Positions 129 to 25,558 are shown, numbered from the stretch's first letter. The stretch: 64,000 nucleotides of DNA from an uncultured Chloroflexia bacterium (GCA_963825525.1 CAWGTN010000002.1:1920001-1984000), one strand, 5' to 3'. Translations and numbers: made by a program. The notes: generated by a model from the sequence alone, not told the origin.

Positions 129-983
129 TCAGGTCGGGTCCTGGCTTCGAACCGATGCGTGCCACGGGATGAGCGCCCGCTCGAGCGCGACGATCAGCAG
201 GTAGAACGTGATCCCGGTCACCGCTGCCAGGAAGATGGCGGCCCATGTCACGTCGAATCGCAGGGCGGACGCGGACTGAACCACCACTCTGCCGATCACG
301 GTCGATGATCCACCGAAGTACTCGCCGACGATCGCTCCGATGAGGCTCAGGGTGGTGGCCACCTTGAGCGCGGTCAGGAAGAAGGGAAGCGCGTTCGGCA
401 GTCGGAGCTTGCGAAGAATCGTCCACTCCGATGCCGCGTACGAGCGCATGAGCTCCAACGCGGAAGGCTCGACCGAGGTCAGCCCGCGGGTCACGTTGAT
501 CATCACCGGGAAGAACACGAGCAGCGCCGCGATCATCATCTTCGAGACGGGGTTCGTGACGCCGAACCAGGCGTTGAAGATCGGCGCGATGGCGATGATC
601 GGGATGGCGTTCGCCGCCACCGCGAAGGGCAGTACCGCGTCCCGCGCGTTCGCCCAGCGGGCCACGCCGAACGCGATGATGATGCCGACCACGGTGCCGA
701 TAACCAGCCCGCCGACAGCCTCGAACAGCGTGGCCATCGCGGAGTCGAACAGCGGCCATCGCCCGGCGCCCCAGTTCTCGACCAGCGCCGCGCCGATGGC
801 CGAGGGTGCCGGCAGGATGAATGCGCGTACGTCCAGGAGCTGGATGACGAGCTCCCAGATCCCGAGGGCGGCAACGCCGACGATCACGGCCGGCAGGTTG
901 TGTCCGAAGGCGGCTCCGATGCGACCGGCGCGCGAGGGTCGCGGCGGCACCGGGACGCCGACCGATGGGGCAGCGGCGGTCAC
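129..983 (-). CDS. ABC transporter permease, NitT/TauT family
   Basis: Hydrophobic; ILPAPSAI, IPIIAIAP, ELMRSYAAS..ILRKLRLPNALP (EAA loop), GAIVGEY; GTG start overlaps the upstream stop (GTGA). Confidence 0.9.
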   Translation of the reverse strand: MTAAAPSVGVPVPPRPSRAGRIGAAFGHNLPAVIVGVAALGIWELVIQLLDVRAFILPAPSAIGAALVENWGAGRWPLFDSAMATLFEAVGGLVIGTVVGIIIAFGVARWANARDAVLPFAVAANAIPIIAIAPIFNAWFGVTNPVSKMMIAALLVFFPVMINVTRGLTSVEPSALELMRSYAASEWTILRKLRLPNALPFFLTALKVATTLSLIGAIVGEYFGGSSTVIGRVVVQSASALRFDVTWAAIFLAAVTGITFYLLIVALERALIPWHASVRSQDPT

Positions 984-1810
984 CCGATGCGTCCCTCGGC
1001 CGCGAGGCGTGCCTCGGATGCGCTTGACCCTTCGCCCGCTCGCAGGGCCTCGCGAACCTCGGTCACGACCTGGAAGTAGCGGGGATCCTCGCGCGTCTCG
1101 TCGTTGCGCGGATGCGGCAGGGGCACGTCGACGACACGCGTGATCCGGCCGGGTCGCGCGCTCATGACCACGACCCGCGTCGACAGGAAGACCGCCTCGG
1201 GGATCGAATGGGTCACGAACACGACCGTCGTCCCGGTCTGCTCCCAGATGCGGAGCACCTCGGAGTTCATCCGCTCCCTGGTCATCTCGTCGAGGGCGCC
1301 GAACGGCTCGTCCATGAGCAGAATCGCCGGCTGGAGCGCCAGTGCGCGCGCGATGGCCACGCGCTGCTGCATGCCGCCCGACAGCTGGTACGGGTGGTGC
1401 TTCGCGAAGTCGCTCAGCTCCACCAGTGCAAGCATCTCCCGCGCCCGCTCGTCGCGCTGGGTCCGGTTCATGTCCAGGATTTCGAGCGGCAGCTTCACGT
1501 TCTCCTCGACGCTGCGCCACTCGAACAGCACCGGCGCCTGAAACACCATTCCGTATTCCCGGCCCATGCGCGCCGCGTGCGACGGCTTGCCATTGACCTC
1601 CACGCTGCCGGCGGTCGGGGCGGTCAGGTCACCGATCAGCCGCAGCAGCGTGCTCTTGCCGCAACCCGATGGGCCGATGAGGCTCACGAACTCGCCGCGT
1701 TCGATGCTCAGGTCGATCCCGGACAGAGCGGTGGTCACCACCTGGTCGCCGGCGTTGAACTGCTTGTCGAGGCCCGTGATCCGGACGACGGGGGCCTGGG
1801 CGTCGGTCAT
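980..1810 (-). CDS. ABC transporter ATP-binding protein, NitT/TauT family
   Basis: Walker A GPSGCGKST, signature LSGGMQQR, Walker B LLMDEPFGALD, VTHS. Confidence 0.95.
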   Translation of the reverse strand: MTDAQAPVVRITGLDKQFNAGDQVVTTALSGIDLSIERGEFVSLIGPSGCGKSTLLRLIGDLTAPTAGSVEVNGKPSHAARMGREYGMVFQAPVLFEWRSVEENVKLPLEILDMNRTQRDERAREMLALVELSDFAKHHPYQLSGGMQQRVAIARALALQPAILLMDEPFGALDEMTRERMNSEVLRIWEQTGTTVVFVTHSIPEAVFLSTRVVVMSARPGRITRVVDVPLPHPRNDETREDPRYFQVVTEVREALRAGEGSSASEARLAAEGRIG

Positions 1811-1820
1811 CGCTCGCTCC

Positions 1821-2693
1821 TCACGCGGCGTCCGGCACGGAACCGCGACCGCGCAGCGCGACCAGCTCCGCGACGCGGATGAGCCCGAAGAACACGATCC
1901 CGAGCAGTGCACAGGCGATGATCGTGGCCCACAGCTTCTCCGGCCCGCTGATGTACTGGTTGTTGAAGTTGATGATGGCCCGGCCCAGGCCGTCGCGGAT
2001 CTGGCCGGGTCCCTCGCCGACGATGGCGCCGACGATGCTGGCGGTCGCGCTGATCTTGAGTGCGGTGAACAGGTACGGGAGTGACGCCGGCATGCGCAGC
2101 TTCCAGAAGATGCTGCGCCGGCTGGCCGCGTACGAGCGCATGAGCTCCAACGCACGTGGATCGGGCGAGCGCAGCCCGCGAATCATGGCGATCGTGACCG
2201 GGAAGAAAGTGAGGTAGGTGGCGATGATCACCACGCTCAGCACGTCGGGCCCGAAGGCGAACACGATCATGGGCGCCAGTGCCACGATCGGGATCGTCTG
2301 GCTGGCGATCACGTACGGCACGAATGCCCTCTCGAGCAGTGTCGAGTGCACGAAGGCCGCCGCCAGGCCGATGCCGATGATGGCGCCCACCACGAAGCCG
2401 ATGGCGGCCTCGCGCCAGGTGTAGGCGGCCGCACCGACCAGGAACTGGGCCAGCGAGGCATCCGACCCGCGCTGTACCGGCGCGGCGAGCGCGCCGAAGA
2501 TGTCCCACACGTGGGGGAGCAGCAGGTCGGAGGCGAACCAGATCTCGAGGGGCGGTTCCCAGACCCAGGTCTCGGTGCGCCACGGATCGCCCCCGACGAA
2601 CTTCACGCCCTCCCAGGCGACGAGGATGAACGCCGCGAACGCGACGAAGATCGCGACCCGCCGGACCCAGCCGCGTTCAGGCGACTGCGGCAT
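1821..2693 (-). CDS. ABC transporter permease, NitT/TauT family
   Basis: SQTIPIVALAP, ELMRSYAAS..IFWKLRMPASLP, GAIVGEG; paralogue of 129-983. Confidence 0.9.
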   Translation of the reverse strand: MPQSPERGWVRRVAIFVAFAAFILVAWEGVKFVGGDPWRTETWVWEPPLEIWFASDLLLPHVWDIFGALAAPVQRGSDASLAQFLVGAAAYTWREAAIGFVVGAIIGIGLAAAFVHSTLLERAFVPYVIASQTIPIVALAPMIVFAFGPDVLSVVIIATYLTFFPVTIAMIRGLRSPDPRALELMRSYAASRRSIFWKLRMPASLPYLFTALKISATASIVGAIVGEGPGQIRDGLGRAIINFNNQYISGPEKLWATIIACALLGIVFFGLIRVAELVALRGRGSVPDAA

Positions 2694-4012
2694 CGGTGAT
2701 CTCGAGCGCGCGATCGATGATCGCGAACCCTTCGGCCAGCTCCTCCTCGCTGATGGTCAGCGGCGGGTTCGTGAAGAACGAGTTCCAGCGCACGAAGGTG
2801 TAAAGCCCGTCTTCGCGGAAGCGCTTCCCCAGCGCCGCCATCTCGTCGCTGGTGCCGTTGAACGGGGCCAGCGGCTCCATGGTCTCGCGGTTGCGAACGA
2901 GCTCGACGATCCCGAACAGGCCGATGCTACGGGTGGCACCCACGCTCGGATGCCTGGCCGCCAAGCTCGGCGTGGTGCTGCTTGAGAGTCTCGCCCATCT
3001 GGGCGGCCCGCTCGATGAGGTTCTCGTTCTCATACACCTCGATCGTTGCGAGCGCGGTGGCGCAGGCCAGCGGATGCGAGTTGTACGTCAGGCCGCCGTA
3101 GAAGACGTTGGAGTCGAAGTGCTCGGCGTACTTGCGCCGCATGCCGAGTGCGCCGAGCTGCACGTAGGCGCTGGTGAGTCCCTTGGCCATGGTGATGAGG
3201 TCGGGAACCACGTCCCAGTGGTCGATGGCGAACCACTTGCCGGTGCGGCCGAAGCCGGCCATCACCTCGTCGGCGATCATGAGGATGCCGTAGCGGTCGC
3301 AGATCTCGCGGACGCCCTGGATGTAGCCGTCCGGCGGCACGAGGATGCCGTTCGTGCCGGTCACCGTCTCGAGGATGAACGCGGCGATCGTGTTCGGCCC
3401 CTCGAGCTGGATCGTCTCCTCCAGGAGGGCCAGCGCCTCGTCCGCCGTGTCCCAGCCGCGCTGGATGCCGTGGTACGGATCCATCACGCGGACCACGCCG
3501 GGGATGCCCGGCTCATTGGCCCATCGGCGCGGATCACCGGTCAGGGTCATGGCGCCGGCGGTGCCGCCGTGGTAGCTGCGGTAGCGGGCCAGGATCTTGT
3601 GCCGGCCGGTCACGAGTCGCGCGAGCTTGACGGCGTTCTCGTTTGCCTCGGCGCCCCCGTTGGTGAAGAAGAAGGTGTCGATGTCGCCCGGGGTCAGCTC
3701 CGCCAGCTTCTTCCCCAGCCGCGCCCGCGGCTCCGTGGCCATGAATGGGTTCGCGTAGGCCAGCGTCTCCGCCTGGCGCTTGATCGCCTCGACGACGTGC
3801 GGATGGCCGTGGCCGATGTTCGTGCACATCAGCTGGCTGTTGAAATCCAGGAAACGCTTGCCCTCGGGCGTCCAGAAGTACACGCCCTTGGCGCCGGCCA
3901 CCGGAATCGGGTCCACCTTGCTCTGGGCGGACCACTCGAACAGCGTGTGGCGCTTTGTGAGCTCGACCATCTCGGCCCCGCTCATCGTCCCCCGATCGGT
4001 CTCGATCGCCAT
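2677..4012 (-). CDS. Class-III PLP aminotransferase (beta-alanine/taurine:pyruvate-like), frameshifted near 2960
   Basis: LDFNSQLMCTNIGH, FTNGGAEANE, SYHG, IADEVMAGFGRTG, TMAKG; C-terminus (HPSVGATRSIGLFG..NPPL) continues in another frame. Confidence 0.88.
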
Positions 4013-11262: not shown

Positions 11263-11273
11263 CCCGCGACTTG

Positions 11274-11879
11274 TCAGCGCATCGGTGCGCTGAGCTGTCC
11301 CTCCACCAGCGGCTCTCCCACGATCCCCGCCAGCCGCTCGGCAATGGCCCACCAGTCGAAATCGGCCGTCACCTCGCTGGCGGGCACGCGGAGGGATCGG
11401 CCCTCGGGGAGGTAGATCGGCAGGATGCGGTCGAGGATCGCCTCGATCTCGTCGCGGAACCCGTCACTCGTGGACCGCACGCCATCGGCCAGCAGACCGA
11501 CATCGGGAAGCAGGCGCACCGACAGGTCATAGGTGGTCGCCCATCGTCGGATCAGCGGCTCGACCGCGTACGGATCCTCGCCTCCGGTGACCCGCAGGTA
11601 GTAGGCGAAGTTGTCGACCACAGAGCGATCGGTGACGAGCACATCGGCGCGTTTGACGAGCTCGAGCTCCTGCTGGACCTGCGCCATGAGCACCCACAGC
11701 TGGGCCTCCGAGGTCGCCCCCTCGTTCAGCCCCAGCGGGTTGAATCGGACGACCTCGCGCCCCACCTCCACCGACCGGCCGGCGCGACCGATCGTAGAGG
11801 CGAAGGCGTGCACCGCGTTTGACTTCCGGACCGAATGCGAGCCGATGAAGGCGATCTTGGCGGGACGGGACCAGGGCAT
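11274..11879 (-). CDS. AAA_28/NadR-like P-loop kinase/ATPase
   Basis: KIAFIGSHSVRKS (variant Walker A), REVVR, VTDRSVVDNFAY, DGVR. Confidence 0.65.
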   Translation of the reverse strand: MPWSRPAKIAFIGSHSVRKSNAVHAFASTIGRAGRSVEVGREVVRFNPLGLNEGATSEAQLWVLMAQVQQELELVKRADVLVTDRSVVDNFAYYLRVTGGEDPYAVEPLIRRWATTYDLSVRLLPDVGLLADGVRSTSDGFRDEIEAILDRILPIYLPEGRSLRVPASEVTADFDWWAIAERLAGIVGEPLVEGQLSAPMR

Positions 11880-11888
11880 GGCGGAAGC

Positions 11889-13064
11889 CTACAGGCAGGG
11901 CCCGGTGGCGACGGCGGTCGTCGACCCGATGGACGGCCCGATCCGCTCCAGGGCCTGGTCGGAGCCGATGGCGTACCCGACCTCGGCGGAAACGCGCGAG
12001 GCACCGAACACCACCCCGCCGACCATCCCCGGCTCGACCACCAGCGGTCCGCCGCTGTTGCCGCGCCGGATCTGGCTCGTCATCTCGACCACGCTCCGGT
12101 CATTGAGTCCCTGGCCGTAGATGTCCGGCCCTCCGATCCGGTAGGTCGATGTCACCGACGCCGCCGTCACCGTGAGCGGGCCGCCGCCCGGGTACCCGAG
12201 CGCGACGCCGGTGGATCCGCGCTGCGGTGCGCGTTCGAGGAGGCGCAGCGGAGGTCCGCTGACGCCCGGGACGTTGAGGAGCGCCAGGTCGGCGTCGGGG
12301 TCGAACGCGACAACGGTCGCCGCGTGCACCGATCCGCCCAGCGTGACCGTCGTGTCTGCGGCCCCGGCCACGACGTGAGCGTTCGTCACGACCGAGGTGG
12401 GCGACACGAAGAACCCACTGCCCACGGCCATGCCGCTGCCGCATCCCGTGCTCGAGATGCGAACGGTGCTCGGGAGGGCGGATTGCGCCAGGGCCGCCGC
12501 CTCGGCATCGCTCGGCAGCTCGACCGGCTCGGCGGGCCGCGGCTCGAGGCCACCGAACAGGGGCGGCAGGTCCGTGGTGTCGATGAGCGCGAGCAGCCGG
12601 CCGGCCACGATGGTCGGCGGCGGCAGCCGATCCGACACGATCCGCAGCGTGACCGAATCGTGGGCGAGGCCCGCGATCGCCGGCGCCATGCCGACCGCCA
12701 CCATGCCGCTGATGATCCAGACGAGCAGGACGACGTGTGCGGCACCGACCACCGCGCCGCCCAGCGCGTCGATCGGCCGCAGGCCGCTGCGCCGCAGGCC
12801 GATGCTCATGGTCGTGCCCGCCGCGGCCCCGGCAGCCTCGCCGACCAGCACGAATGCCGCGAAGCCGACCAGCGTGACCAGCGCCCGCATCGGCTGCTCG
12901 ATCGCCACCAGCTGGTCGCGGAACAGCGTCGCCGCCAGGAGTGCCAGCCCGAAACCCACAGCGGCGCCGATCAGCCCGAGGATCGGCCCCAGGAAGCCGG
13001 CCCGCGCTCCCGAGAACAGGCCGAGGACAAGGAGGAGGGCCACCACCGCATCGATGAGATTCAT
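11889..13064 (-). CDS. marP: MarP-family membrane serine protease (CvpA-like TM region plus trypsin-like domain)
   Basis: TM N-terminus; GSGFF, TNAHVV, DLALL, GNSGGP triad; Cys pair TGCG/TGPC. Confidence 0.85.
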   Translation of the reverse strand: MNLIDAVVALLLVLGLFSGARAGFLGPILGLIGAAVGFGLALLAATLFRDQLVAIEQPMRALVTLVGFAAFVLVGEAAGAAAGTTMSIGLRRSGLRPIDALGGAVVGAAHVVLLVWIISGMVAVGMAPAIAGLAHDSVTLRIVSDRLPPPTIVAGRLLALIDTTDLPPLFGGLEPRPAEPVELPSDAEAAALAQSALPSTVRISSTGCGSGMAVGSGFFVSPTSVVTNAHVVAGAADTTVTLGGSVHAATVVAFDPDADLALLNVPGVSGPPLRLLERAPQRGSTGVALGYPGGGPLTVTAASVTSTYRIGGPDIYGQGLNDRSVVEMTSQIRRGNSGGPLVVEPGMVGGVVFGASRVSAEVGYAIGSDQALERIGPSIGSTTAVATGPCL

Positions 13065-13083
13065 GGCGGCGAAGCCTAGCGGC

Positions 13084-13656: not shown

Positions 13657-14505
13657 ATGGCGCGAACGGTACGCGCGGCACTGCTCCAGGCGGAGTGGAC
13701 CGGCGACAAAGAGTCGATGATCGAGAAGCACGAGAAGTACGCCCGCGAGGCCGCCAAGCAGGGCGCCAAGGTGATGTGCTTCCAGGAGCTCTTCTACGGT
13801 CCCTACTTCTGCCAGGTGCAGGATCCCCAGTACTTCAGCTACACCGAGCACATCCCGGACGGCCCGACCACCAAGCGGATGCAGGAGCTGGCCAAGGAGA
13901 CCGGGATGGTCCTCATCGTCCCGATGTACGAAGAGGACGAGCACGCCCAGGGCATCTACTACAACACCGCGGCGGTGATCGACGCCGATGGCACCTACCT
14001 GGGCAAGTACCGCAAGACCCACATCCCGCAGGTCAAGGGCTTCTGGGAGAAGTTCTACTTCCGTCCCGGCAACACCGGCTATCCCGTCTTCGACACAGCG
14101 GTCGGCAAGGTCGGCGTCTACATCTGCTACGACCGCCACTTCCCCGAGGGCGCGCGGGCGTTGGGCCTGAACGGGGCCGAGATGGTCTTCATCCCGTCGG
14201 CGACGTCGCGGGGACTGAGCGAGTACCTGTGGAGGATCGAGCAGGTCAGCCACGCGGTCGCCAATGGCTATTACGTCGGGACCATCAACCGCGTCGGCAT
14301 CGAGCCACTGGGTGACAACGACTTCTATGGCCAGTCGTACTTCGTGGATCCGCGTGGCCAGTTCATCGGCGACGTGGGCGACGCGCACGACGAGGAGCTC
14401 ATCGTCCGTGACCTCGACCTCGACAAGGTGACCGAGGTCCGGCAGCTCTGGCAGTTCTACCGCGACCGCCGGCCGGACGCCTACGACGACCTCGTTCGGC
14501 CGTAG
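13657..14505 (+). CDS. Nitrilase-family beta-ureidopropionase (N-carbamoyl-beta-alanine amidohydrolase)
   Basis: CFQELFYGPYFC, YRKTHIP, FWEKFYFRPG, ICYDRHFPE (E-K-C triad). Confidence 0.88.
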   Translation: MARTVRAALLQAEWTGDKESMIEKHEKYAREAAKQGAKVMCFQELFYGPYFCQVQDPQYFSYTEHIPDGPTTKRMQELAKETGMVLIVPMYEEDEHAQGIYYNTAAVIDADGTYLGKYRKTHIPQVKGFWEKFYFRPGNTGYPVFDTAVGKVGVYICYDRHFPEGARALGLNGAEMVFIPSATSRGLSEYLWRIEQVSHAVANGYYVGTINRVGIEPLGDNDFYGQSYFVDPRGQFIGDVGDAHDEELIVRDLDLDKVTEVRQLWQFYRDRRPDAYDDLVRP

Positions 14506-14507
14506 CC

Positions 14508-15518
14508 ATGGACTTTGGCTTCACGCTCAAGCCCGAGCATCGGTTCGATCGGTCGGTCGAGCTGGCGAAGCGCGCGGAGGCAACCGGCCACACGTACGGC
14601 TGGCTGTTCGACAGCCACATCCTGTGGCGCGATCCGTATCCGCTCCTGACGCTCATGGCCCAGGCCACCGAGCGCATGCGCTTCGGGACATGCGTCACGA
14701 ATCCGGGAACGCGCGACATCACGGTGACCGCCTCGGTGCTCTCGACGCTCAACGAAATCAGCGATGGCCGCATGGAGCTGGGCATCGGGCGCGGTGACTC
14801 CGCGGTGCGCGTCGCCGGCAAGAAGCCGATGACGGTCGCCTACCTGGAGGAGGCCTGCGTCGCCATTCGCGCGCTGACCGCCGGCGATCCGGTGACGCTC
14901 GACGGCACCGAGGTCCAGATGGGCTGGGCCAACGGCAACGGCGGGCCGGTGAAGGTGTGGGTGGCAGGCTACGGGCCAAAGGCGCTCGCCGCCGCCGGGC
15001 GGGTGGCGGACGGGATCATCCTCCAGGTCGCTGATCCGGACATCATCCGCTGGTGCATGGGCTTCGTCCGCGCCGGCGCCGAGGAGGCCGGGCGAGACCC
15101 GGATGCCTTCGAGGTCATGGCGGCCGCCCCGGCCTACATCAGCGACGACGTCGACGCGGCGCGCGAGAAGGTTCGCTGGTTCCCGGCCCTGGTGAGCAAC
15201 CACGTGGTCGATCTCATCAACAAGTATCCGAAGGACGAGCTGCCGGAGGCGCTGTGGGGCTACGTCCAGGACCGAGAGGGCTACGACTACCACCACCATG
15301 CCGAGGTGGGGAGCGACAACGCTCGGTTCGTGTCGGACGAGATCACCGACAAGTTCGCGATCATCGGTCCCGCGTCGGCGCACCACGAGCGACTCGCCGA
15401 GCTCCGCGAGGCCGGCGTCACCCAGTTCAACAACTACCTGATGAACGGCGAGGAAGAGGAGCAGCTCGACCTGTACGGCGAGCAGGTCATCGACAGGCTG
15501 GCACCGGCCAGGTCCTAG
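14508..15518 (+). CDS. LLM-class (F420-type) oxidoreductase, TIGR03842/CPS_4043-like
   Basis: MDFG..WLFDSHILWRDPY, CVTNPGTRD, GIGRGDSA, WFPALVSNHVVDL, YDYHHHA. Confidence 0.8.
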   Translation: MDFGFTLKPEHRFDRSVELAKRAEATGHTYGWLFDSHILWRDPYPLLTLMAQATERMRFGTCVTNPGTRDITVTASVLSTLNEISDGRMELGIGRGDSAVRVAGKKPMTVAYLEEACVAIRALTAGDPVTLDGTEVQMGWANGNGGPVKVWVAGYGPKALAAAGRVADGIILQVADPDIIRWCMGFVRAGAEEAGRDPDAFEVMAAAPAYISDDVDAAREKVRWFPALVSNHVVDLINKYPKDELPEALWGYVQDREGYDYHHHAEVGSDNARFVSDEITDKFAIIGPASAHHERLAELREAGVTQFNNYLMNGEEEEQLDLYGEQVIDRLAPARS

Positions 15519-15551
15519 GTCGAGGTCAGGCCTCGAAGGGGAGTGACTTGG

Positions 15552-16121
15552 TCATTCGGCCTGGCTCTCGGCGCGCATCGCCGCCTTATGGGCTCGCTTC
15601 TTGGCCTGGTAGTCGGCCAGGGCCTGTGGCGAATCCACGTCGCCGAGGGTCGGGTGACCGGGCAGGACGGCATCGATGCCGGGCGGCCGCACCCCCAGCT
15701 GCTTCGCCAGCACCGCGGTCAGGGATCGCACCTTCATGTCGCCGAAGCCGGGCAGGGCCGCGATCCGACGCTGGAGGTCGCGCCCATCGCTGGCATCGGT
15801 CCACACCCGCGCAGCATCGCCGTCGTACGTCCCGGCAACGAACGCGGCCAGCTCCTGGACCCGGCGTGCCATGGCGGCGGGGAAGCGGTGGATGGCCGGT
15901 GGACCCTTGGCGGCTGCCATCAGCGCGGGCTCGTCGAGTTCGGCGAGCATCCGCGCATCCAGCGACCCGAGTCGCTCGAGAAGCACCTTCGGGCCGGAGA
16001 AGGCCTTCTGCACGGGCACCTGCTGGTCGAGGGCGAAGCCGATGAGCAATGCCATCGGCTGCTCCACCAGCAGCTGATCCGCTTTGTCGTCCCCGGTGAA
16101 ATGCAGGCGATCGGTCGTCAT
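15552..16121 (-). CDS. HhH-GPD-type protein (TIGR03252-like)
   Basis: LLIGFALDQQVP, AFSGP, PAIHRFPAAMA, LPGFGDMK, LGDVDS. Confidence 0.8.
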   Translation of the reverse strand: MTTDRLHFTGDDKADQLLVEQPMALLIGFALDQQVPVQKAFSGPKVLLERLGSLDARMLAELDEPALMAAAKGPPAIHRFPAAMARRVQELAAFVAGTYDGDAARVWTDASDGRDLQRRIAALPGFGDMKVRSLTAVLAKQLGVRPPGIDAVLPGHPTLGDVDSPQALADYQAKKRAHKAAMRAESQAE

Positions 16122-16241
16122 GCTCGCATCGTACAGCCGAGAACCGCCACGGGCTGGCACTCCAGGCGGCACCCGCAGATGCCGGCCACCCATCGCCGGC
16201 GCTAGGATGACGCCCTCGCGGCCTGCAGTACGGAGGAACGG

Positions 16242-17633
16242 ATGCGCACCCTCATCAAGGGCGGAACGATCGTCAACGCCGACGCCACGACCTCGGCGGA
16301 CGTGCTCGTGGACGGCGAGCGCATCGCGCTCATCGGCTCGGATCTCGAGGTCGAGGCCGACCGTACGGTGGACGCATCGGGCAAGTGGGTGATCCCGGGG
16401 GCAATCGACGTGCACACCCACATGGAGCTTCCATTCGGCGGGACCGCGGCCAAGGACACCTTTGAGACGGGCACGCGCGCGGCAGCGTTTGGCGGAACGA
16501 CGACGATCGTGGACTTCGCGGTCCAGGGCAAGGGGCAGTCGCTGCGCGAGGGTCTCGACGCGTGGCACGCCAAGGCCGAGGGCAACGCCTGCGTTGACTA
16601 CGGCTTCCACATGATCATGAGCGACGTCACGGACGACACCCTCGCCGAGATGGACACGTTGGTGGACGAGGGCGTGACCGACTTCAAGCTGTTCACCGCC
16701 TATCCGGGCGTCTTCTACAGCGATGACGGCGCGATCTTCCGCGCCATGCAGCAGACCGCCAGGAACGGCGGGCTCATCCTCATGCACGCCGAGAACGGCA
16801 TGGCGATCGACGTGGTGGCCGCCCAGAACGTTGACGCCGGCAACACCGACCCGTACTACCACGGGACGAGCCGGTCCCCGGTCATGGAGGGGGAGGCAAC
16901 GAACCGGGTAATCCGCCTGGCGCAAGTGGCCGGGGTGCCGGTGTACATCGTCCACCTCTCGGCCATCGAGGCGCTCAACGAGGTTCGTCGCGCACGCGAC
17001 GAGGGGCTGCCGGCCTACGCCGAGACCTGCCCGCAGTACCTGTTCCTGACGCTCGAGGACATGGGCAACGGCTTCGAGGGCGCGAAGTTCGTGTGCTCGC
17101 CCCCGCTTCGTCCGGCCGAGCACGCCGGCGAGCTGTGGAAGGGCCTGGCCAAGGACGACCTGCAGGTGGTGTCAACGGATCACTGCCCGTTCGACTTCCA
17201 CGGCCAGAAGGACCTCGGCAAGGGCGACTTCCGCAAGGTGCCGAACGGTCTTCCCGGCGTTGAGGATCGCGTCAATCTCCTGCACTCGGGTGGTGTGGTC
17301 GATGGCTACATGACGCCGAACCGCTGGGTCGAGGTCATCAGCGCCGCCCCGGCGCGCATGTTCGGACTCGAGGGGCGCAAGGGCGTGGTCGGAGTCGGCG
17401 CCGATGCCGACCTGGTGGTCTACGACCCGAACGCGAAGCACACCATCAGCGCCACGACCCACCACATGGACGTCGACTACTCGTGCTACGAGGGTCGCGA
17501 GGTCACGGGCAGGCCGGAGATCGTGCTGTCGCGCGGCAAGGTCATCGTCGACGGCGACGAGTGGCTCGGTGCCCGCGGAGACGGGAGATTCCTGAAGCGA
17601 GCGCCGACCGGGGAGCTGCTGAGCCGCACCTGA
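16242..17633 (+). CDS. hydA: Dihydropyrimidinase / D-hydantoinase
   Basis: PGAIDVHTH, GGTTTIVDF, FKLF, HAENG, ETCPQYL, CSPPLR, STDHCPF, PNGLPGVE. Confidence 0.95.
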   Translation: MRTLIKGGTIVNADATTSADVLVDGERIALIGSDLEVEADRTVDASGKWVIPGAIDVHTHMELPFGGTAAKDTFETGTRAAAFGGTTTIVDFAVQGKGQSLREGLDAWHAKAEGNACVDYGFHMIMSDVTDDTLAEMDTLVDEGVTDFKLFTAYPGVFYSDDGAIFRAMQQTARNGGLILMHAENGMAIDVVAAQNVDAGNTDPYYHGTSRSPVMEGEATNRVIRLAQVAGVPVYIVHLSAIEALNEVRRARDEGLPAYAETCPQYLFLTLEDMGNGFEGAKFVCSPPLRPAEHAGELWKGLAKDDLQVVSTDHCPFDFHGQKDLGKGDFRKVPNGLPGVEDRVNLLHSGGVVDGYMTPNRWVEVISAAPARMFGLEGRKGVVGVGADADLVVYDPNAKHTISATTHHMDVDYSCYEGREVTGRPEIVLSRGKVIVDGDEWLGARGDGRFLKRAPTGELLSRT

Positions 17634-20429: not shown

Positions 20430-20876
20430 ATGAGCGATCCCGAGCTGTCGGTGGGCAGCGGCATGACCGACGATCTCCGCGCGTGGTTGGTCGATGGCCT
20501 GCGCTACCCAGTGCTGGCCGTGAACTCGGGCGACGGTCCGCCCAGCCAGTCGGTCATGTGGTTCGATGTCGACCCGAACGATCCCGACGTGATCCTGATG
20601 AACACCATGGTGCGCCGCCTGAAGTACCGCCAGCTGCTGGCGGATCCACGGGCCTCGCTGCTGTTCGAGGACGGGCTGTACTGGGTCTCGATGCGCGGCA
20701 CCGTGGAGCTCGATGCCGAGTTCCAGCCGGCCCTCGATCACATCATGGCCCTGGCTCGACGCTACAGCGCCAACCCGGACCGCTACATCGGCCAGGAGCG
20801 GGTCATCATCCGGATGCGAATCGAGAAGGTCATTCGCCACGATCTGCCAGCTGCGGCCATACAATCGCGAGCATGA
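20430..20876 (+). CDS. PPOX-class (pyridoxamine 5'-phosphate oxidase-like) F420-type protein
   Basis: DGPPSQSVMWF, RLKYRQLLADPRASL, WVSMRG, ERV; GAGGAG RBS. Confidence 0.75.
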   Translation: MSDPELSVGSGMTDDLRAWLVDGLRYPVLAVNSGDGPPSQSVMWFDVDPNDPDVILMNTMVRRLKYRQLLADPRASLLFEDGLYWVSMRGTVELDAEFQPALDHIMALARRYSANPDRYIGQERVIIRMRIEKVIRHDLPAAAIQSRA

Positions 20877-22255
20877 TCACTTCGATCAATCCGGCGACCG
20901 AGGAGACCCTGGCCGAGTTCGAGCCGTGGTCTGAGTCTCAGGTGGACGCCGCCGTCGACGAGGTCGTCGCGGCACAGCACGCGTGGCGCGCCATGAGCGT
21001 CGAGCAACGATCCGTTCCGATGCGCCGCGCGGCGGAGCTGCTCCGCGAGCGCGCCGCCCGCTACGGGGCACTCATCACCGCCGAGATGGGAAAGCCCATC
21101 GTGGAGGCCGAGGCGGAGGTCAACAAGTGCGCGGTGGCGTGCGATCACTACGCCGAGAACGCCGCCGTCTACCTGGCTCACACGCCGGTCGTGACCGAGT
21201 CGCTCGACAGCTACGTCGCCTATGAGCCACTCGGCACGGTCCTGGCCATCATGCCGTGGAACTTCCCGTTCTGGCAGGTCTTCCGGGCTGGCGCTCCGAT
21301 CCTCATGGCCGGCAATGGCATCGTGCTCAAGCACGCATCCAACGTTCCGCAGTCGGCGCTGGCGTGCGAGGAGGTGTTCCGCGACGCGGGCTTCCCGGCC
21401 GGGCTGCTGCGCACGGTGCTGGTGGCAGGGTCGGACACCGAGCGGCTGGTCGACGACTCGCGGATTGCGGCCGTCACCCTGACCGGATCGTCGGAAGTCG
21501 GCGCCCGGATCGCCTCGCTCGCCGCCTCGCGTCTCAAGCCGCAGGTGCTCGAGCTGGGCGGCTCCGACCCGTTCATCGTGCTTGCCGATGCCGACCTCGG
21601 GTACGCCGCCCGGACCGCGGCGCGTGCCCGAAACCAGAACAGCGGCCAGAGCTGCATCGCGGCGAAACGCTTCATCGTGGTGGACTCGGTCGCCGACGAG
21701 TTCGCCAGCCTGTTCGCCGATGCCGTGCGTGGCATGCGCGTCGGCGATCCTACCTCGCGCGAGACGAACGTCGGTCCGCTGGCCCGCGGCGACCTGCGCG
21801 AGGCCCTCGAACGCCAGGTGGAGGAGTCCCGGCGACAGGGCGCACAGCCGCTCGTTGGCGGAGAGCGGGTGGACGGACGCGGCTACTTCTATGCCCCGAC
21901 CGTCCTCGATGGCGTGACCGACAGCATGCCGGCGTTCACCGAGGAAACCTTCGGCCCGGTAGCCGCCGTCATCAGGGCGCGTGACGTCGAGCATGCCGTC
22001 ACGCTGGCCAACGACAGCGAGTACGGACTCGGAGCGGCGGTGTGGACGCGCGACCTCGACGCGGCGAGGCAGATCGCCGGCCGCATCGAGGCAGGCTCGG
22101 TATTCGTCAACGGCCTGGTGGCCTCCGACCCGCGCATGCCGATGGGTGGCGTGAAGCGCAGCGGCTATGGTCGCGAGCTCGGGCAGCACGGGATCTGGGA
22201 GTTCACGAACATCCAGACCGTACGGATCGGCCCCGCGGAGGCGCCCGCGTCATAA
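20873..22255 (+). CDS. gabD: NAD(P)-dependent succinate-semialdehyde dehydrogenase-like ALDH
   Basis: SINPAT, IMPWNFP, LKHASN, LTGS, LELGGSDP, NSGQSC, EETFGP, GGVKRSGYGRE. Confidence 0.88.
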   Translation: MITSINPATEETLAEFEPWSESQVDAAVDEVVAAQHAWRAMSVEQRSVPMRRAAELLRERAARYGALITAEMGKPIVEAEAEVNKCAVACDHYAENAAVYLAHTPVVTESLDSYVAYEPLGTVLAIMPWNFPFWQVFRAGAPILMAGNGIVLKHASNVPQSALACEEVFRDAGFPAGLLRTVLVAGSDTERLVDDSRIAAVTLTGSSEVGARIASLAASRLKPQVLELGGSDPFIVLADADLGYAARTAARARNQNSGQSCIAAKRFIVVDSVADEFASLFADAVRGMRVGDPTSRETNVGPLARGDLREALERQVEESRRQGAQPLVGGERVDGRGYFYAPTVLDGVTDSMPAFTEETFGPVAAVIRARDVEHAVTLANDSEYGLGAAVWTRDLDAARQIAGRIEAGSVFVNGLVASDPRMPMGGVKRSGYGRELGQHGIWEFTNIQTVRIGPAEAPAS

Positions 22256-22272
22256 GCCCTACCATGGGCTGC

Positions 22273-23214
22273 ATGACGAACGCACCCATCAAATTTGGCG
22301 CCAACTGCTGGAACCAGTACTCGGACTGGGCTTCTCTCCGCGCCGCCGGCATCCGCGCCGACTCCCTTGGATTCGACTCGATCTGGACCTGGGACCACCT
22401 GTACCCGATCGTCGGCTCCCACGAAGGTCCGATCTTCGAGGGATGGCTGACGATCACCGCCTGGGCCGAGCGCACCGAGCACGCCACCGTCGGCCTGATG
22501 GTCGGAGCCAACACGTTCCGGAACCCGGCCATCGTGGCCAAGATGGCCACCACGCTCGACCACATCAGCGGCGGTCGTGCCGTGCTCGGCATCGGCGGCG
22601 CGTGGTTCGAGACCGAGCATCGCGCCTATGGACTGGAGTTCGGGGCCTCCCCCGGCGAGCGGCTGAAGTGGCTCAACGAGGCGGCGGGGATCATGCGCGG
22701 CATGCTCGATGGGGGACGTGGCTCTGGCGGCGACGTGTACGCGACGCACGAGGTCCGCAACGATCCGGCGCCGGTGCAGGATCGGATCCCTCTCCTCATC
22801 GGCGGCGGTGGCGAGCGCAAGACCCTCCGGATCGTGGCTCGCTACGCGGATGCATGCAACGTCGGCGGCGGGTTTGAGAACGTCAGGCGCAAGGACGAGA
22901 TCCTGCGGCGCCACTGCGACGAGGTCGGGCGCGACGAGTCTGAGATCGAGCGCACCACGGGCGTCGGCACCTGCATCATCCGCGACGATCCAGCCGAGGC
23001 ACAGCGCGTCTTCACCGAGATGTTCGCGCGCAACGGTGGAGCGACGCCATGGACGGACCAGCTGGTCGGAACGCCGGAGCAGGTGACGGACAAGCTGCGG
23101 CCGTTCCTCGGCATCGGGTTCCGGCACTTCATCGTCGGCTTCCCGAGCCCCTACGACGCCGAGTCGATGGAGCGGCTGATGACCGAGGTGAAGCCCGCCC
23201 TGGCGGCCGGCTGA
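22273..23214 (+). CDS. LLM-class flavin/F420-dependent oxidoreductase
   Basis: GFDSIWTWDH, FRNPAIVAKMATTLDHISGGR, IGGGGERKTL. Confidence 0.88.
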   Translation: MTNAPIKFGANCWNQYSDWASLRAAGIRADSLGFDSIWTWDHLYPIVGSHEGPIFEGWLTITAWAERTEHATVGLMVGANTFRNPAIVAKMATTLDHISGGRAVLGIGGAWFETEHRAYGLEFGASPGERLKWLNEAAGIMRGMLDGGRGSGGDVYATHEVRNDPAPVQDRIPLLIGGGGERKTLRIVARYADACNVGGGFENVRRKDEILRRHCDEVGRDESEIERTTGVGTCIIRDDPAEAQRVFTEMFARNGGATPWTDQLVGTPEQVTDKLRPFLGIGFRHFIVGFPSPYDAESMERLMTEVKPALAAG

Positions 23215-23230
23215 GCGTCGGGCCCGACCG

Positions 23231-24154
23231 ATGAGGATTGCGCTGCTGGCCGGCGGCACGGGCGGGGCGAAGCTCGCGCACGGGTTCGCCCTCCTTGCCG
23301 ATGCGGTCGAGCTCTCGATCATCGCCAACGTCGGAGATGACGCCGAAGTCCACGGACTGCATGTCAGCCCCGATCTCGATGCCATCGCGTACCACCTGGC
23401 CGGCCTTGCCGATGGCGACCAGGGCTGGGGCATCATCGGCGACACGCATGGTGCGCAGTCGATGTTCGAGCGACTCGGCGTCCCGACCTGGTTCTCGCTC
23501 GGAGACGCCGATCTGGCCACCAGCGTTGAGCGCACGCGTCGCCTGCAGCAGGGGGCGCGGCTGACCGAGGCAACGGCCGCGATCGCATCGGCCCTCGGTC
23601 TGGAATCCACGCTCCTGCCATCGAGCGATGATCGATACCGGACCACGCTTGTCACCGACGAGGGAGTGCTCGAGTTCCAGGAGTACTTCGTCCGTCGCCG
23701 TCAGCGGCCCGAAGTGCAATCCATCGAGATGGATGGAGGCGCCGCGGCCCGTCCCACGCCGGAGACGATGCGGGCCATCGAGCGGGCGGAGCGCATCGTG
23801 ATCGGGCCGTCGAACCCGCTCGTCAGCATCGGGCCGATGCTCGAGCTGGCGGGCATGCGGGAGGCGATTTCGGCGGCCAGCGCCCTGACGGTGGCCGTCA
23901 GCCCGATCATCGGCGGGGCGGCCTTGAAGGGTCCGGCCGACCGAATGCTGAGATCGATGGGCCACGAATCGAGTGCGCTCGGCGTTGCGCGGCTGTATGT
24001 CGGTCTCGTCGACCGCTTCGTGATCGACGAGGTCGACGAGGCCCTGGCGCCGCCGATCGAGGCGCTCGGCATGCGCGTCTCGGTGCTGCCGACGGTCATG
24101 CGATCGGACGCGGACCGGCGGACGCTGGCCGCCTCGATCCTGGCCGCGGATTGA
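23231..24154 (+). CDS. cofD: 2-phospho-L-lactate transferase (F420 biosynthesis)
   Basis: LAGGTGGAK, NVGDD, SPDLD, WFSLGDAD, FQEYFV, GPSNPLVSIGP, ALKGPA. Confidence 0.95.
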   Translation: MRIALLAGGTGGAKLAHGFALLADAVELSIIANVGDDAEVHGLHVSPDLDAIAYHLAGLADGDQGWGIIGDTHGAQSMFERLGVPTWFSLGDADLATSVERTRRLQQGARLTEATAAIASALGLESTLLPSSDDRYRTTLVTDEGVLEFQEYFVRRRQRPEVQSIEMDGGAAARPTPETMRAIERAERIVIGPSNPLVSIGPMLELAGMREAISAASALTVAVSPIIGGAALKGPADRMLRSMGHESSALGVARLYVGLVDRFVIDEVDEALAPPIEALGMRVSVLPTVMRSDADRRTLAASILAAD

Positions 24155-24205
24155 GCCCGGACGGACCGGGTCAGGCGATCGCGATATCCTCCACCGGTGA
24201 CATCC

Positions 24206-24803
24206 ATGCGGATCATCGTCCCGCACCGCGGCCTCGACGCGGCGAAGACGCGTCTCGCCCCGACGCTGACGCCGGAGGAGCGGGTCGATGCTGGCCAGCC
24301 AGCTCCTGCAGCGAGTTCTCAAGGTCGCGCGCGAGGTGTGCCCGGACGTGGTGGTGATCTCGCCGTCCCGTGCCCTGGCCGAGATCGTCGAGCCATCCGG
24401 CGCCCGTCTGGCCGTCCAGCGTGGAATGGGCCTCAACGAGGGACTTGAGCAGGCCCGATTCGAGGCGCTGGTCGATGATGTCGGTACGCTCGTCGTGCTG
24501 CACGGCGACCTGCCGAACCTGCGTCCCGCGGACGTGGAGGCGCTCCTCGCCGCGCTGCCGGATGGCGACGAGCCCGCGGTTTCGATCGCTCCCGATCGAG
24601 CCGGGACGGGGACGAACGGGCTGGTGCTGAGGCCGCCCGGCGTCATTCGCTTCCGCTTCGGCGTCGGCAGCTTTGCCGAACACCTCGTCGAGGTGGAGCG
24701 CGCCGGCGTGCCGCTCGTGGCCGTCAGTCGCGCCGGGCTCTCCTTCGATCTCGACACGCCCGATGACCTCACGCGCTGGCTCGAGCTCGGCGACGCGGCA
24801 TGA
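24206..24803 (+). CDS. cofC: 2-phospho-L-lactate/PEP guanylyltransferase, frameshifted near 24287
   Basis: IIVP..AKTRL, then GLNEGL, HGDLP, GTGTNGL, FRFGVGSF, DLDTPDDL. Confidence 0.9.
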
Positions 24804-25558
24804 CGGGCCGGATCGAGCTCATCGCCCTCGACGGTATCGGCGAAGTCGTCCCGGGCGACGACCTGCCCGAGCTCATCGTCGGCGCGGTCGAGGCATCCGA
24901 CCTGGTGCTCGGTGACGATGACGTGCTGGTGGTGACCCAGAAGGTCGTGTCGAAGGCGGAGGGTCGCCTGGTCGAGCTGGCATCCGTGGAGCCGTCCGAG
25001 CTTGCGCGCCGATGGGCTGAGCGCTGGGGCCGCGATCCTCGCCAGGTCGAGCTGGTCCTGCGCGAATCCGCGGCGATCATCCGCATGGCTCCCGGCGGGC
25101 TGATCATCAGCCGAACCCATCACGGCCTGGTGTGTGCCAACGCCGGCGTCGACGTCAGTAATGTCGGCGGTGGTGAGGTGGCGGCCCTGCTGCCCGTGGA
25201 TCCGGACGCGTCCGCCGTCGCCATCCGGCAGGCGGTTCAGCGCCGCATGGGCGTGCAGCCGGCGGTGATCATCAGCGACTCCTTTGGGCGGCCGTGGCGC
25301 AACGGGATCGTGAACGTGGCGATCGGGTCGGCCGGCATCGCGCCACTCCGGGACATGCGCGGTGAGCCCGACACGGGAGGAAGGCCGATGCAGGCCACGG
25401 TCATCGCCGTGGCGGATGCGCTGGCATCGGCTGCGGACCTTGCCGGCGGGAAGGTGGATCAGCGCCCCGTGGTGGTGGTGAGGGGATATGCCTTCGATCG
25501 GTCGGATGTCTCGGCCGCCGAGCTGATCATGGATCCGTCACGCGACCTCTTCCCGTAG
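24800..25558 (+). CDS. cofE: Coenzyme F420-0:L-glutamate ligase (single domain)
   Basis: PGDDL, QKVVSKAEG, ANAGVDVSN, LPVDPDASA, DSFGRPWR. Confidence 0.95.
   Translation: MTGRIELIALDGIGEVVPGDDLPELIVGAVEASDLVLGDDDVLVVTQKVVSKAEGRLVELASVEPSELARRWAERWGRDPRQVELVLRESAAIIRMAPGGLIISRTHHGLVCANAGVDVSNVGGGEVAALLPVDPDASAVAIRQAVQRRMGVQPAVIISDSFGRPWRNGIVNVAIGSAGIAPLRDMRGEPDTGGRPMQATVIAVADALASAADLAGGKVDQRPVVVVRGYAFDRSDVSAAELIMDPSRDLFP

Follow-up and report, generated by a model that had tools for sequence, protein, structure and literature searches.

A TIGR03842 luciferase-like oxidoreductase as a proposed F420H2-dependent uracil/thymine reductase in pyrimidine catabolism clusters of Chloroflexota

Genes at the locus

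The stretch of DNA analysed here (64,000 nucleotides, referred to as the window) is from an uncultured soil bacterium of the Chloroflexia (GCA_963825525.1, CAWGTN010000002.1:1920001-1984000) and corresponds to C2:1920001-1984000 of a genome that is 2.58 Mb in size, in 4 contigs, 92% complete, and approximately 69% G+C. It contains a small group of genes related to those of the reductive pyrimidine route, and we focus on one of these, which encodes a luciferase-like (LLM) oxidoreductase of the TIGR03842 family and is proposed to take the place of the dihydropyrimidine dehydrogenase PreT/PreA. Genes were called with a codon log-odds caller trained on the window's own genome, and coordinates are those of the window except where prefixed with C2.

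The leftmost gene of the group (13657..14505, plus strand) encodes a 282-residue nitrilase-superfamily N-carbamoyl amidase (CN_hydrolase PF00795, 227 bits). Its best NCBIfam match is to aguB (275 bits, under the cut-off of 410), and the nearest solved chains are N-carbamoylputrescine amidase (218 bits), Drosophila beta-alanine synthase (186 bits) and human beta-ureidopropionase (167 bits); on these sequence matches it is a candidate beta-ureidopropionase, which would act at step 3 of the route. Only two bases separate its TAG stop codon (14503-14505) from the ATG start codon (14508) of the LLM gene (14508..15518, plus strand), in agreement with the spacing given in the original prediction. The 336-residue LLM, the proposed step 1 enzyme, matches TIGR03842 (F420_CPS_4043) across model positions 1-328 of 329 with a score of 414.9 bits (cut-off 295.45), and Bac_luciferase (PF00296, 213 bits) is its sole Pfam match at E<=1e-5. 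Its closest relatives are in Chloroflexota metagenome-assembled genomes labelled Candidatus Limnocylindria, and not in actinobacteria; the window organism is a Limnocylindria-type member of the Chloroflexota. Further to the right, hydA (16242..17633, plus strand) encodes the 463-residue dihydropyrimidinase/D-hydantoinase of step 2 (TIGR02033, 560.5 bits, cut-off 393.25), for which the nearest solved chain is the D-hydantoinase 1k1d (496 bits).

The original prediction correctly placed hydA after the LLM gene, but overlooked a minus-strand gene that intervenes (15552..16121), which codes for a 189-residue base-excision-repair-type HhH-GPD protein (TIGR03252, 180.3 bits, cut-off 136.5). Because this gene is on the opposite strand, hydA is outside of the amidase-LLM transcription unit. 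The HhH-GPD gene keeps its position between the LLM gene and hydA in the closest relatives, and a DNA glycosylase-type gene thus adjoins pyrimidine catabolism genes both there and in the window; it probably has no part in the pyrimidine pathway.

Searches for PreA were negative both for the window and for the rest of the genome, which is 92% complete. The sole DHO_dh-family gene of the genome is that of the quinone-dependent PyrD (C2:1256101-1257105), the PreA model NF006183 has no match in the genome at E<=1e-40, and a tblastn search with E. coli PreA gives no match at E<=1e-8. There are two GltD/PreT-like genes (798 and 657 residues), both of which are outside of the window and neither of which has a PreA gene adjoining. 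The earlier statement that neither preT nor preA is in the window is borne out by these searches.

Gene neighbourhoods and distribution of the family

LLM genes were compared at 180 loci, comprising 80 from close relatives, 20 from nine other Chloroflexota families, and 80 from metagenomes. Upstream flank of 1 kb or more is available at 68 of the close-relative loci, and in 66 of these the amidase gene precedes the LLM gene by no more than 1.5 kb and is on the same strand; 46 loci extend for 9 kb or more downstream, and 39 of them have hydA there, at distances of 45-8775 bases (median 3.0 kb). At the 20 loci from the nine other families, hydA is present in 17/20 and an amidase in 11/20, with eight amidases of the nitrilase type and three of the non-homologous M20 type; the latter are 'hydantoinase/carbamoylase' amidases (TIGR01879, 286 bits) and all three loci are from family f14. 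As the LLM-hydA pairing is kept even where a non-homologous type of amidase is used, the link between the two would appear to be functional and not merely inherited. The same 20 loci contain nucleobase-type transporters (12/20; NCS1 [TIGR00800, 406 bits] or ABC transporters with an NMT1/THI5-like binding protein), class-III aminotransferases (9/20), and CoA-acylating methylmalonate-semialdehyde dehydrogenase (MMSDH; TIGR01722, 594 bits; 7/20), and in family f18 the gene order is NCS1-LLM-amidase-hydA-MMSDH-aminotransferase. The LLM clusters cover every enzymatic step of the reductive route with the exception of uracil/thymine reduction.

A PreA/PreT-type gene is present in none of these 20 loci, and in none of the 180 LLM loci overall; the routine occurrence of preTA in the same operons, which the original prediction had named as the outcome that would speak against it, is thus not seen. 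Canonical Chloroflexota clusters are represented by G211 (hydA-PreA-PreT / NCS1 / MMSDH) and by G077 (hydA-PreA-like-NCS1-amidase-aminotransferase-MMSDH), and because these share their neighbours with the LLM clusters, the LLM gene can be seen to occupy the PreA/PreT slot.

The distribution of the family was determined in a sample of 401 Chloroflexota genomes, drawn evenly, in which TIGR03842, SsnA and PreA (NF006183) were scored as present over the model cut-offs and hydA at E<=1e-90; the tallies take in the unpublished genomes G038, G145 and G227, none of which carries a claim alone. TIGR03842 is present in 62/401 genomes, belonging to the window's class (families f1-f4) and to nine other families, and hydA is present in 157/401, including 61 of the 62 TIGR03842 genomes. 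The pattern recurs within genera, as two genomes of genus g12 have both TIGR03842 and hydA and two have neither, and all six genomes of g13 have neither. Among the 96 genomes with hydA and without TIGR03842, 61 have a strong SsnA match (at least 378 bits) and three have PreA, a tally that indicates that, in Chloroflexota, hydantoinase-type genes mainly belong to one of two settings, that of SsnA (urate-type) or that of TIGR03842. The window's own genome has a second hydantoinase paralogue (G000:C2:305000-325000, outside of the window; 401 bits against TIGR02033), which we rejected as a component of the system because its neighbours (xanthine dehydrogenase subunits, uricase, OHCU decarboxylase, malate synthase and a xanthine/uracil permease) are those of an oxidative urate cluster; it is probably an allantoinase-like enzyme.

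The 80 metagenome loci were recovered with a 7-sequence alignment as query and range in G+C from 0.41 to 0.73. An amidase or hydA is present in 53 of them, and where at least 2.5 kb is available on both sides (n=24) there are 23 with an amidase or hydA and 16 with both; PreA, PreT, SsnA and the M20 amidase were found in 0/80. Replicons of Streptomyces sp. BHT-5-2 and S. rimosus (plasmid records) have the order amidase-aminotransferase-...-hydA-LLM. Leisingera aquaemixtae and L. caerulea (RefSeq annotation) have an operon cofG-cofH-cofD-cofC-cofE-npdG-TIGR03842, divergent from a pntA-pntB-aminotransferase-Zn-dependent hydrolase-dihydropyrimidinase-NCS1 symporter series, and in Paracoccus alcaliphilus a like cof-npdG-LLM operon is followed by an ABC transporter. 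These operons are plasmid-borne (L247/L249 in L. aquaemixtae, L262 in L. caerulea, and L246 in P. alcaliphilus), and TIGR03842 would be the single client enzyme whose gene shares an operon with the complete F420 pathway and Fno, and might explain why these plasmid-borne pathways are retained. A DUF1330 gene recurs at the edges of the Leisingera and Paracoccus cof-LLM regions.

In a tree of the family (quick maximum-likelihood, SH-aLRT support, midpoint root) a pyrimidine context is seen in all of the main TIGR03842 branches. It is missing from one six-member clade, which has neither hydA nor the amidase; the other exceptions, a plasmid homologue from Rhodococcus and an LLM linked to SsnA, are placed outside on long branches. 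The Rhodococcus match was rejected as a member of the family, as it has 36.5% identity, no hydA nearby and a long branch outside the family. The function of the six-member clade may have diverged; five of its six loci have a distant LLM paralogue (25-27% identity) immediately upstream, and at one locus (L229) an aminotransferase and an ABC transporter are found downstream.

Other parts of the window contain relatives of genes seen in these clusters. A class-III aminotransferase gene (2677..4012, minus strand), a candidate beta-alanine/beta-aminoisobutyrate transaminase, is 65% identical to the aminotransferase flanking LLM-hydA in family f18; the representative of that cluster scores 533 bits against NF004718. 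Its matches fall in two high-scoring segments in different frames that meet near 2963-3000, and the split reflects a genuine frameshift or else an error of assembly. ABC transporter permease, ATPase and permease genes (129..2693, minus strand; called at 129-983, 980-1810 and 1821-2693) are 43-57% identical to the transporter adjoining LLM-hydA in family f14, and an NMT1/THI5-like binding-protein homologue is encoded just upstream of the window (C2:1915703-1916791). An MMSDH homologue is present in the same genome, 190 kb away (C2:1744544-1745983). Within 11274-13064, codon statistics and Pfam matches point to minus-strand genes (AAA_28-like, 11274-11879; Colicin_V/trypsin-like, 11889-13064), and the longer plus-strand open reading frames at 11271-11822 and 11835-13079 have no family match. 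RNA sequencing runs account for a small share of the window's sampled words, with contigs of about 100 nt that are mostly on the conserved amidase and hydA genes; more than half of these contigs are at 90-95% likeness (two metatranscriptomes and two doubtful 'RNA' runs), and they show neither expression nor operon structure for the window organism.

Fold, cofactor and conserved residues

An alignment-based AlphaFold model of the LLM has a pLDDT of 94.1 and a pTM of 0.91, and its top fold matches are all LLM barrels. The best of these is F420-bound Mer (8qpl_A, TM 0.80, E 4e-25), followed by FGD2, Adf and FGD1. A similar picture emerges from a phmmer search of the PDB, in which the ten best distinct sequences are all F420 enzymes, beginning with six Mer chains (90-117 bits, full length) and continuing with FGD2/fHMAD, Rhodococcus FGD, Adf and FGD1; FMN-dependent LLMs are far behind, at about 30 bits. 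The LLM is not itself Mer, as it scores 163.6 bits against NF002619 (cut-off 276) and 144.4 bits against TIGR03555 (cut-off 348.7). Glu6 of Mer, which we infer to be important from nothing other than the title of PDB entry 8qq8 ('E6Q'), corresponds to Thr6 in the window LLM, and Thr, Val, Gly and Ser are the commonest residues at this column in a 37-sequence alignment. The family-conserved polar residues are D35, S36, R95, D97, N231-H232, Y259-D260-Y261 and H264. On the pattern of conservation, these could bind or protonate the pyrimidine, with Y259-D260-Y261, H264 and N231-H232 as the catalytic candidates.

Genes for F420 side-chain assembly are present to the right of hydA on the plus strand, all three over their model cut-offs: cofD (23231-24154; TIGR01819, 287 bits), cofC (24288-24803; TIGR03552, 113 bits) and cofE (24800-25558; TIGR01916, 241 bits). 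The start of cofD is 5.6 kb past the end of hydA, as originally described. F420 is favoured over FMN as the bound cofactor because the nearest structures are those of F420 enzymes, cofDCE are in the window, and the LLM gene is the last of the cofGHDCE-npdG operon in Leisingera and Paracoccus. The cof genes are at the right end of an F420-related run of plus-strand genes (20430-25558), in which they are preceded by genes for a 148-residue PNPOx-like protein (a possible F420 flavin/deazaflavin oxidoreductase), a succinate-semialdehyde-dehydrogenase-like Aldedh protein, and a second LLM (TIGR03560-like, under cut-off).

Proposed function, alternatives and related systems

We propose that the TIGR03842 LLM is an F420H2-dependent uracil/thymine reductase and a non-homologous stand-in for dihydropyrimidine dehydrogenase, and judge from sequence and gene context that this is probably its function; the original prediction of a non-homologous uracil/thymine reductase is likewise likely to be right, with strong support from a gene neighbourhood that is conserved in three phyla. 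In the predicted direction, the Mer-like TIM barrel would mediate hydride transfer from F420H2 (C5) to the putative substrate, uracil or thymine (C6), with a proton added at C5 of the latter. The dihydrouracil or dihydrothymine produced would then have its ring opened by the neighbouring dihydropyrimidinase, and the co-transcribed nitrilase-type amidase would free beta-alanine or beta-aminoisobutyrate, NH3 and CO2. In the fuller clusters the class-III aminotransferase and the CoA-acylating MMSDH would complete the route, and the NCS1 or ABC transporter would import the base. The electron path in Leisingera would run from NADH to NADPH (transhydrogenase), from NADPH to F420H2 (Fno), and from F420H2 to the pyrimidine (LLM).

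Several observations weigh against this assignment. In the window itself, hydA is parted from the LLM gene by a gene on the opposite strand, and the aminotransferase gene is frameshifted. In its 92%-complete genome no cofG or cofH (7,8-didemethyl-8-hydroxy-5-deazariboflavin [FO] synthase) was found, so that the gene content does not account for de novo F420 synthesis, and there is no Fno or FGD over cut-off; these absences leave the supply and reduction of F420 in the window organism unexplained. The genome does have cofD, cofC and cofE and several F420-type LLMs, and cofH is over cut-off in 2/81 genomes of the class. We can only guess that the deazaflavin core comes from salvage of FO from outside, and bacteria of this class may depend on external FO. 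Elsewhere, there is no hydA on the P. alcaliphilus plasmid (plasmid record only), none near the LLM genes of the six-member clade (metagenome loci L197, L220, L222, L224, L225 and L229), and none at E<=1e-90 in G347, the exception among the 62 TIGR03842 genomes. The association of TIGR03842 with hydA has a Fisher p of 1e-27 with genomes treated as independent, a value that overstates the support because related genomes are non-independent.

The distribution of PreA belongs with these points. PreA is over cut-off in 11/401 genomes, eight of which are TIGR03842 genomes, and it is thus commoner in TIGR03842 genomes (8/62) than in the others (3/339). All eight are in family f2, a sister family within the window's class, and in the window's own family PreA is over cut-off in 0/16 genomes. 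The f2 PreA is the C-terminal half of a PreT-PreA fusion of 862-903 residues (NF006183, 611 bits) that is never at the LLM locus; in G221 it adjoins MMSDH and hydA, and in G365, where it was traced by homology only, it is in the same region as MMSDH, hydA and amidase. In G365 there is thus one full set with PreT-PreA and a second with the LLM, which suggests differing substrates or electron donors and not simple replacement; NAD(P)H may be the donor for one reductase and F420H2 for the other, or their substrates may differ. The sole hydA of G349 and of G301 is accompanied by NCS1, an amidase and a 375-residue PreA-like gene (308 bits, under cut-off, and with no Fe-S tail), and the LLM-amidase pair is elsewhere. 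Most of the f2 genomes represented by loci L140-L151 (G253, G349, G365, G221, G079, G301, G397 and G245) have a called fusion of 862-903 residues, the 375-residue PreA-like gene is also present in G245, and there are at most three candidate pyrimidine reductases per f2 genome. The anti-correlation with preTA proposed as a check in the original prediction therefore fails at the level of genomes and holds at the level of clusters (0/180 loci); as PreA in the eight genomes is always at another locus, the exclusion is by cluster, not by genome.

The PreT-PreA genes in 8/62 TIGR03842 genomes, the two parallel full sets of G365, and the presence of three candidate reductases in G349 and in G301 would also be expected if the LLM reduces a narrower or other ring (thymine only, a 5-substituted pyrimidine, or an unsaturated cyclic ureide) beside an ordinary dihydropyrimidine dehydrogenase. 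We regard this as unlikely, since 54/62 TIGR03842 genomes, and 16/16 in the window's family, are without PreA over cut-off, no other general uracil-reduction gene was found in the PreA-free TIGR03842 genomes, and the MMSDH and aminotransferase neighbours fit beta-alanine/beta-aminoisobutyrate products. It is less probable still that the LLM acts at another redox step (malonate-semialdehyde/3-hydroxypropionate, or F420H2 recycling) and that uracil is reduced by an unrecognised enzyme. The structural neighbours Adf, FGD and FGD2 are alcohol and sugar dehydrogenases, and a few members (e.g. L229) are accompanied by an aminotransferase and a transporter without hydA, which would suit such a role; however, the LLM is more tightly associated with hydA and the amidase than with the aminotransferase, npdG in the Leisingera operon already supplies F420 reduction, and the presence of MMSDH in the same clusters makes a function at the semialdehyde step unlikely.

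The available part of PMC12507026 reports an F420 'luciferase family' gene that replaces YgfK or UacX, a PydA homologue, in Chloroflexota SsnA clusters with HyuA-type hydantoinases, and the LLM could by analogy be an F420-dependent 'yanthine' (2,8-dioxopurine) reductase of the reductive uric-acid pathway. This is very improbable for TIGR03842. In tblastn searches of the window's own genome and of loci L009-L163 (among them the 80 close-relative and 20 other-family loci), E. coli SsnA, YgeX and YgeY had no match at E<=1e-8, and all three are absent from the 80 metagenome loci at E<=1e-15. The best TIGR03314 match in the window's own genome is 63 bits (cut-off 455), and SsnA, which is over cut-off in 52/401 genomes, is on a different contig in the five that also have TIGR03842 (G031, G121, G346, G367 and G391). 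An LLM gene does occur in three of ten fetched SsnA loci, a few kb from SsnA (L250:4526-5542, L251:14429-15529 and L253:7177-8172), with scores of 80-86 bits against TIGR03842 (cut-off 295) and 165-187 bits against Mer models. The low scores against TIGR03842 place these LLMs in a separate Mer-like subfamily, and they probably correspond to the 'luciferase family' gene of PMC12507026, as far as the available part of that report describes it. With no SsnA, YgeX or YgeY at the LLM loci and a different subfamily in the SsnA clusters, a urate-pathway role for TIGR03842 is largely refuted. The LLM fold does include an enzyme that acts on uracil, RutA, and the amidase and LLM genes are translationally close, as might be expected if the LLM were a RutA-like flavin monooxygenase opening uracil oxidatively with the amidase taking the ureido product. 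We give this almost no credence: RutA (TIGR03612) is not among the 25 family matches of the LLM at E<=1e-5, FMN-dependent LLMs are the most distant matches, the near-obligate partnership with hydA would be without purpose, and the cof-npdG operon indicates F420, which does not activate O2.

A role of the TIGR03842 LLM as an F420H2-dependent uracil/thymine reductase would, if true, provide a function for a widespread 'hypothetical equivalog' family. There are 421 representative clusters at E<=1e-30 in a library clustered at 50% identity, the RefSeq annotation of TIGR03842 is without a biological process, and the model itself reportedly originates with Selengut and Haft in 2010. With such a function, the initial reaction of reductive pyrimidine catabolism would have F420H2 as a third solution to electron donation and, for the first time, a fold other than that of PydA. 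The assignment would also give F420 a physiological role in aerobic soil and marine bacteria, including Proteobacteria with F420 operons, and would correct reconstructions that score PreTA-less organisms as unable to degrade uracil or thymine. On balance we lean towards the broader view that TIGR03842 founds a class of non-homologous F420H2 dihydropyrimidine dehydrogenases that is present in at least Chloroflexota, Actinomycetota and Rhodobacterales. If the separate Mer-like LLM near SsnA is considered as well, a general rule is suggested, by which Mer-like F420 barrels have repeatedly been recruited as dearomatising reductases to supply the cyclic amidohydrolases of nucleobase breakdown. No F420-dependent uracil/thymine reductase in catabolism is described in the full-text literature searched, a body that leaves most subscription journals outside; the closest published remark is that of PMC12507026, on the other LLM subfamily in urate clusters. 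What we propose as new is a non-homologous enzyme with a new cofactor for a known reaction in a known pathway.

The relationships to known systems can be summarized as follows. Mer is the best relative of the LLM in both sequence (117 bits, full length) and fold (TM 0.80) and is an F420 enzyme, but it has Glu6 where the LLM has Thr, and functions in C1 metabolism and not in a pyrimidine-catabolism context. The available part of PMC12507026 (2025) describes Chloroflexota SsnA clusters with an F420 'luciferase family' gene, for which a role as yanthine reductase is proposed on bioinformatic grounds; this would likewise be a Mer-like F420 LLM that replaces a PydA-type reductase before cyclic amidohydrolases, although it belongs to another subfamily and, from that description, to another pathway (with SsnA, XdhD and YgeY as neighbours), and is never at a TIGR03842 locus. 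A chemical precedent for the proposed reaction is SSGG-03002/NpsU, a putative F420/FMN oxidoreductase that, on the evidence of genetics and nuclear magnetic resonance in the accessible part of PMC10714638, reduces the uracil C5=C6 bond in mureidomycins; in vitro activity is not reported in that part, the likeness to the LLM is by description only, and the setting is one of secondary metabolism with a nucleoside-peptide substrate. The ferredoxin-dependent PydA of clostridia is a variant of the first step with a changed electron donor, and, in the portion of PMC7332683 available, is still a PydA homologue, unlike the LLM. A functional counterpart is PreT/PreA (PydA, including its fused forms), which catalyses the same reaction as is proposed for the LLM, uracil/thymine to dihydropyrimidine, and its clusters (L152 and L153) have neighbours in common with the LLM clusters (L122-L124), namely hydA, the carbamoyl-amidase, NCS1, the aminotransferase and MMSDH. 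The two enzymes are non-homologous, however, as PreA has the DHO_dh fold, contains FMN and Fe-S clusters, and works with a GltD-like partner that uses NAD(P)H, whereas the LLM is a single 336-residue barrel with no Fe-S motif and with F420H2 as its predicted donor.

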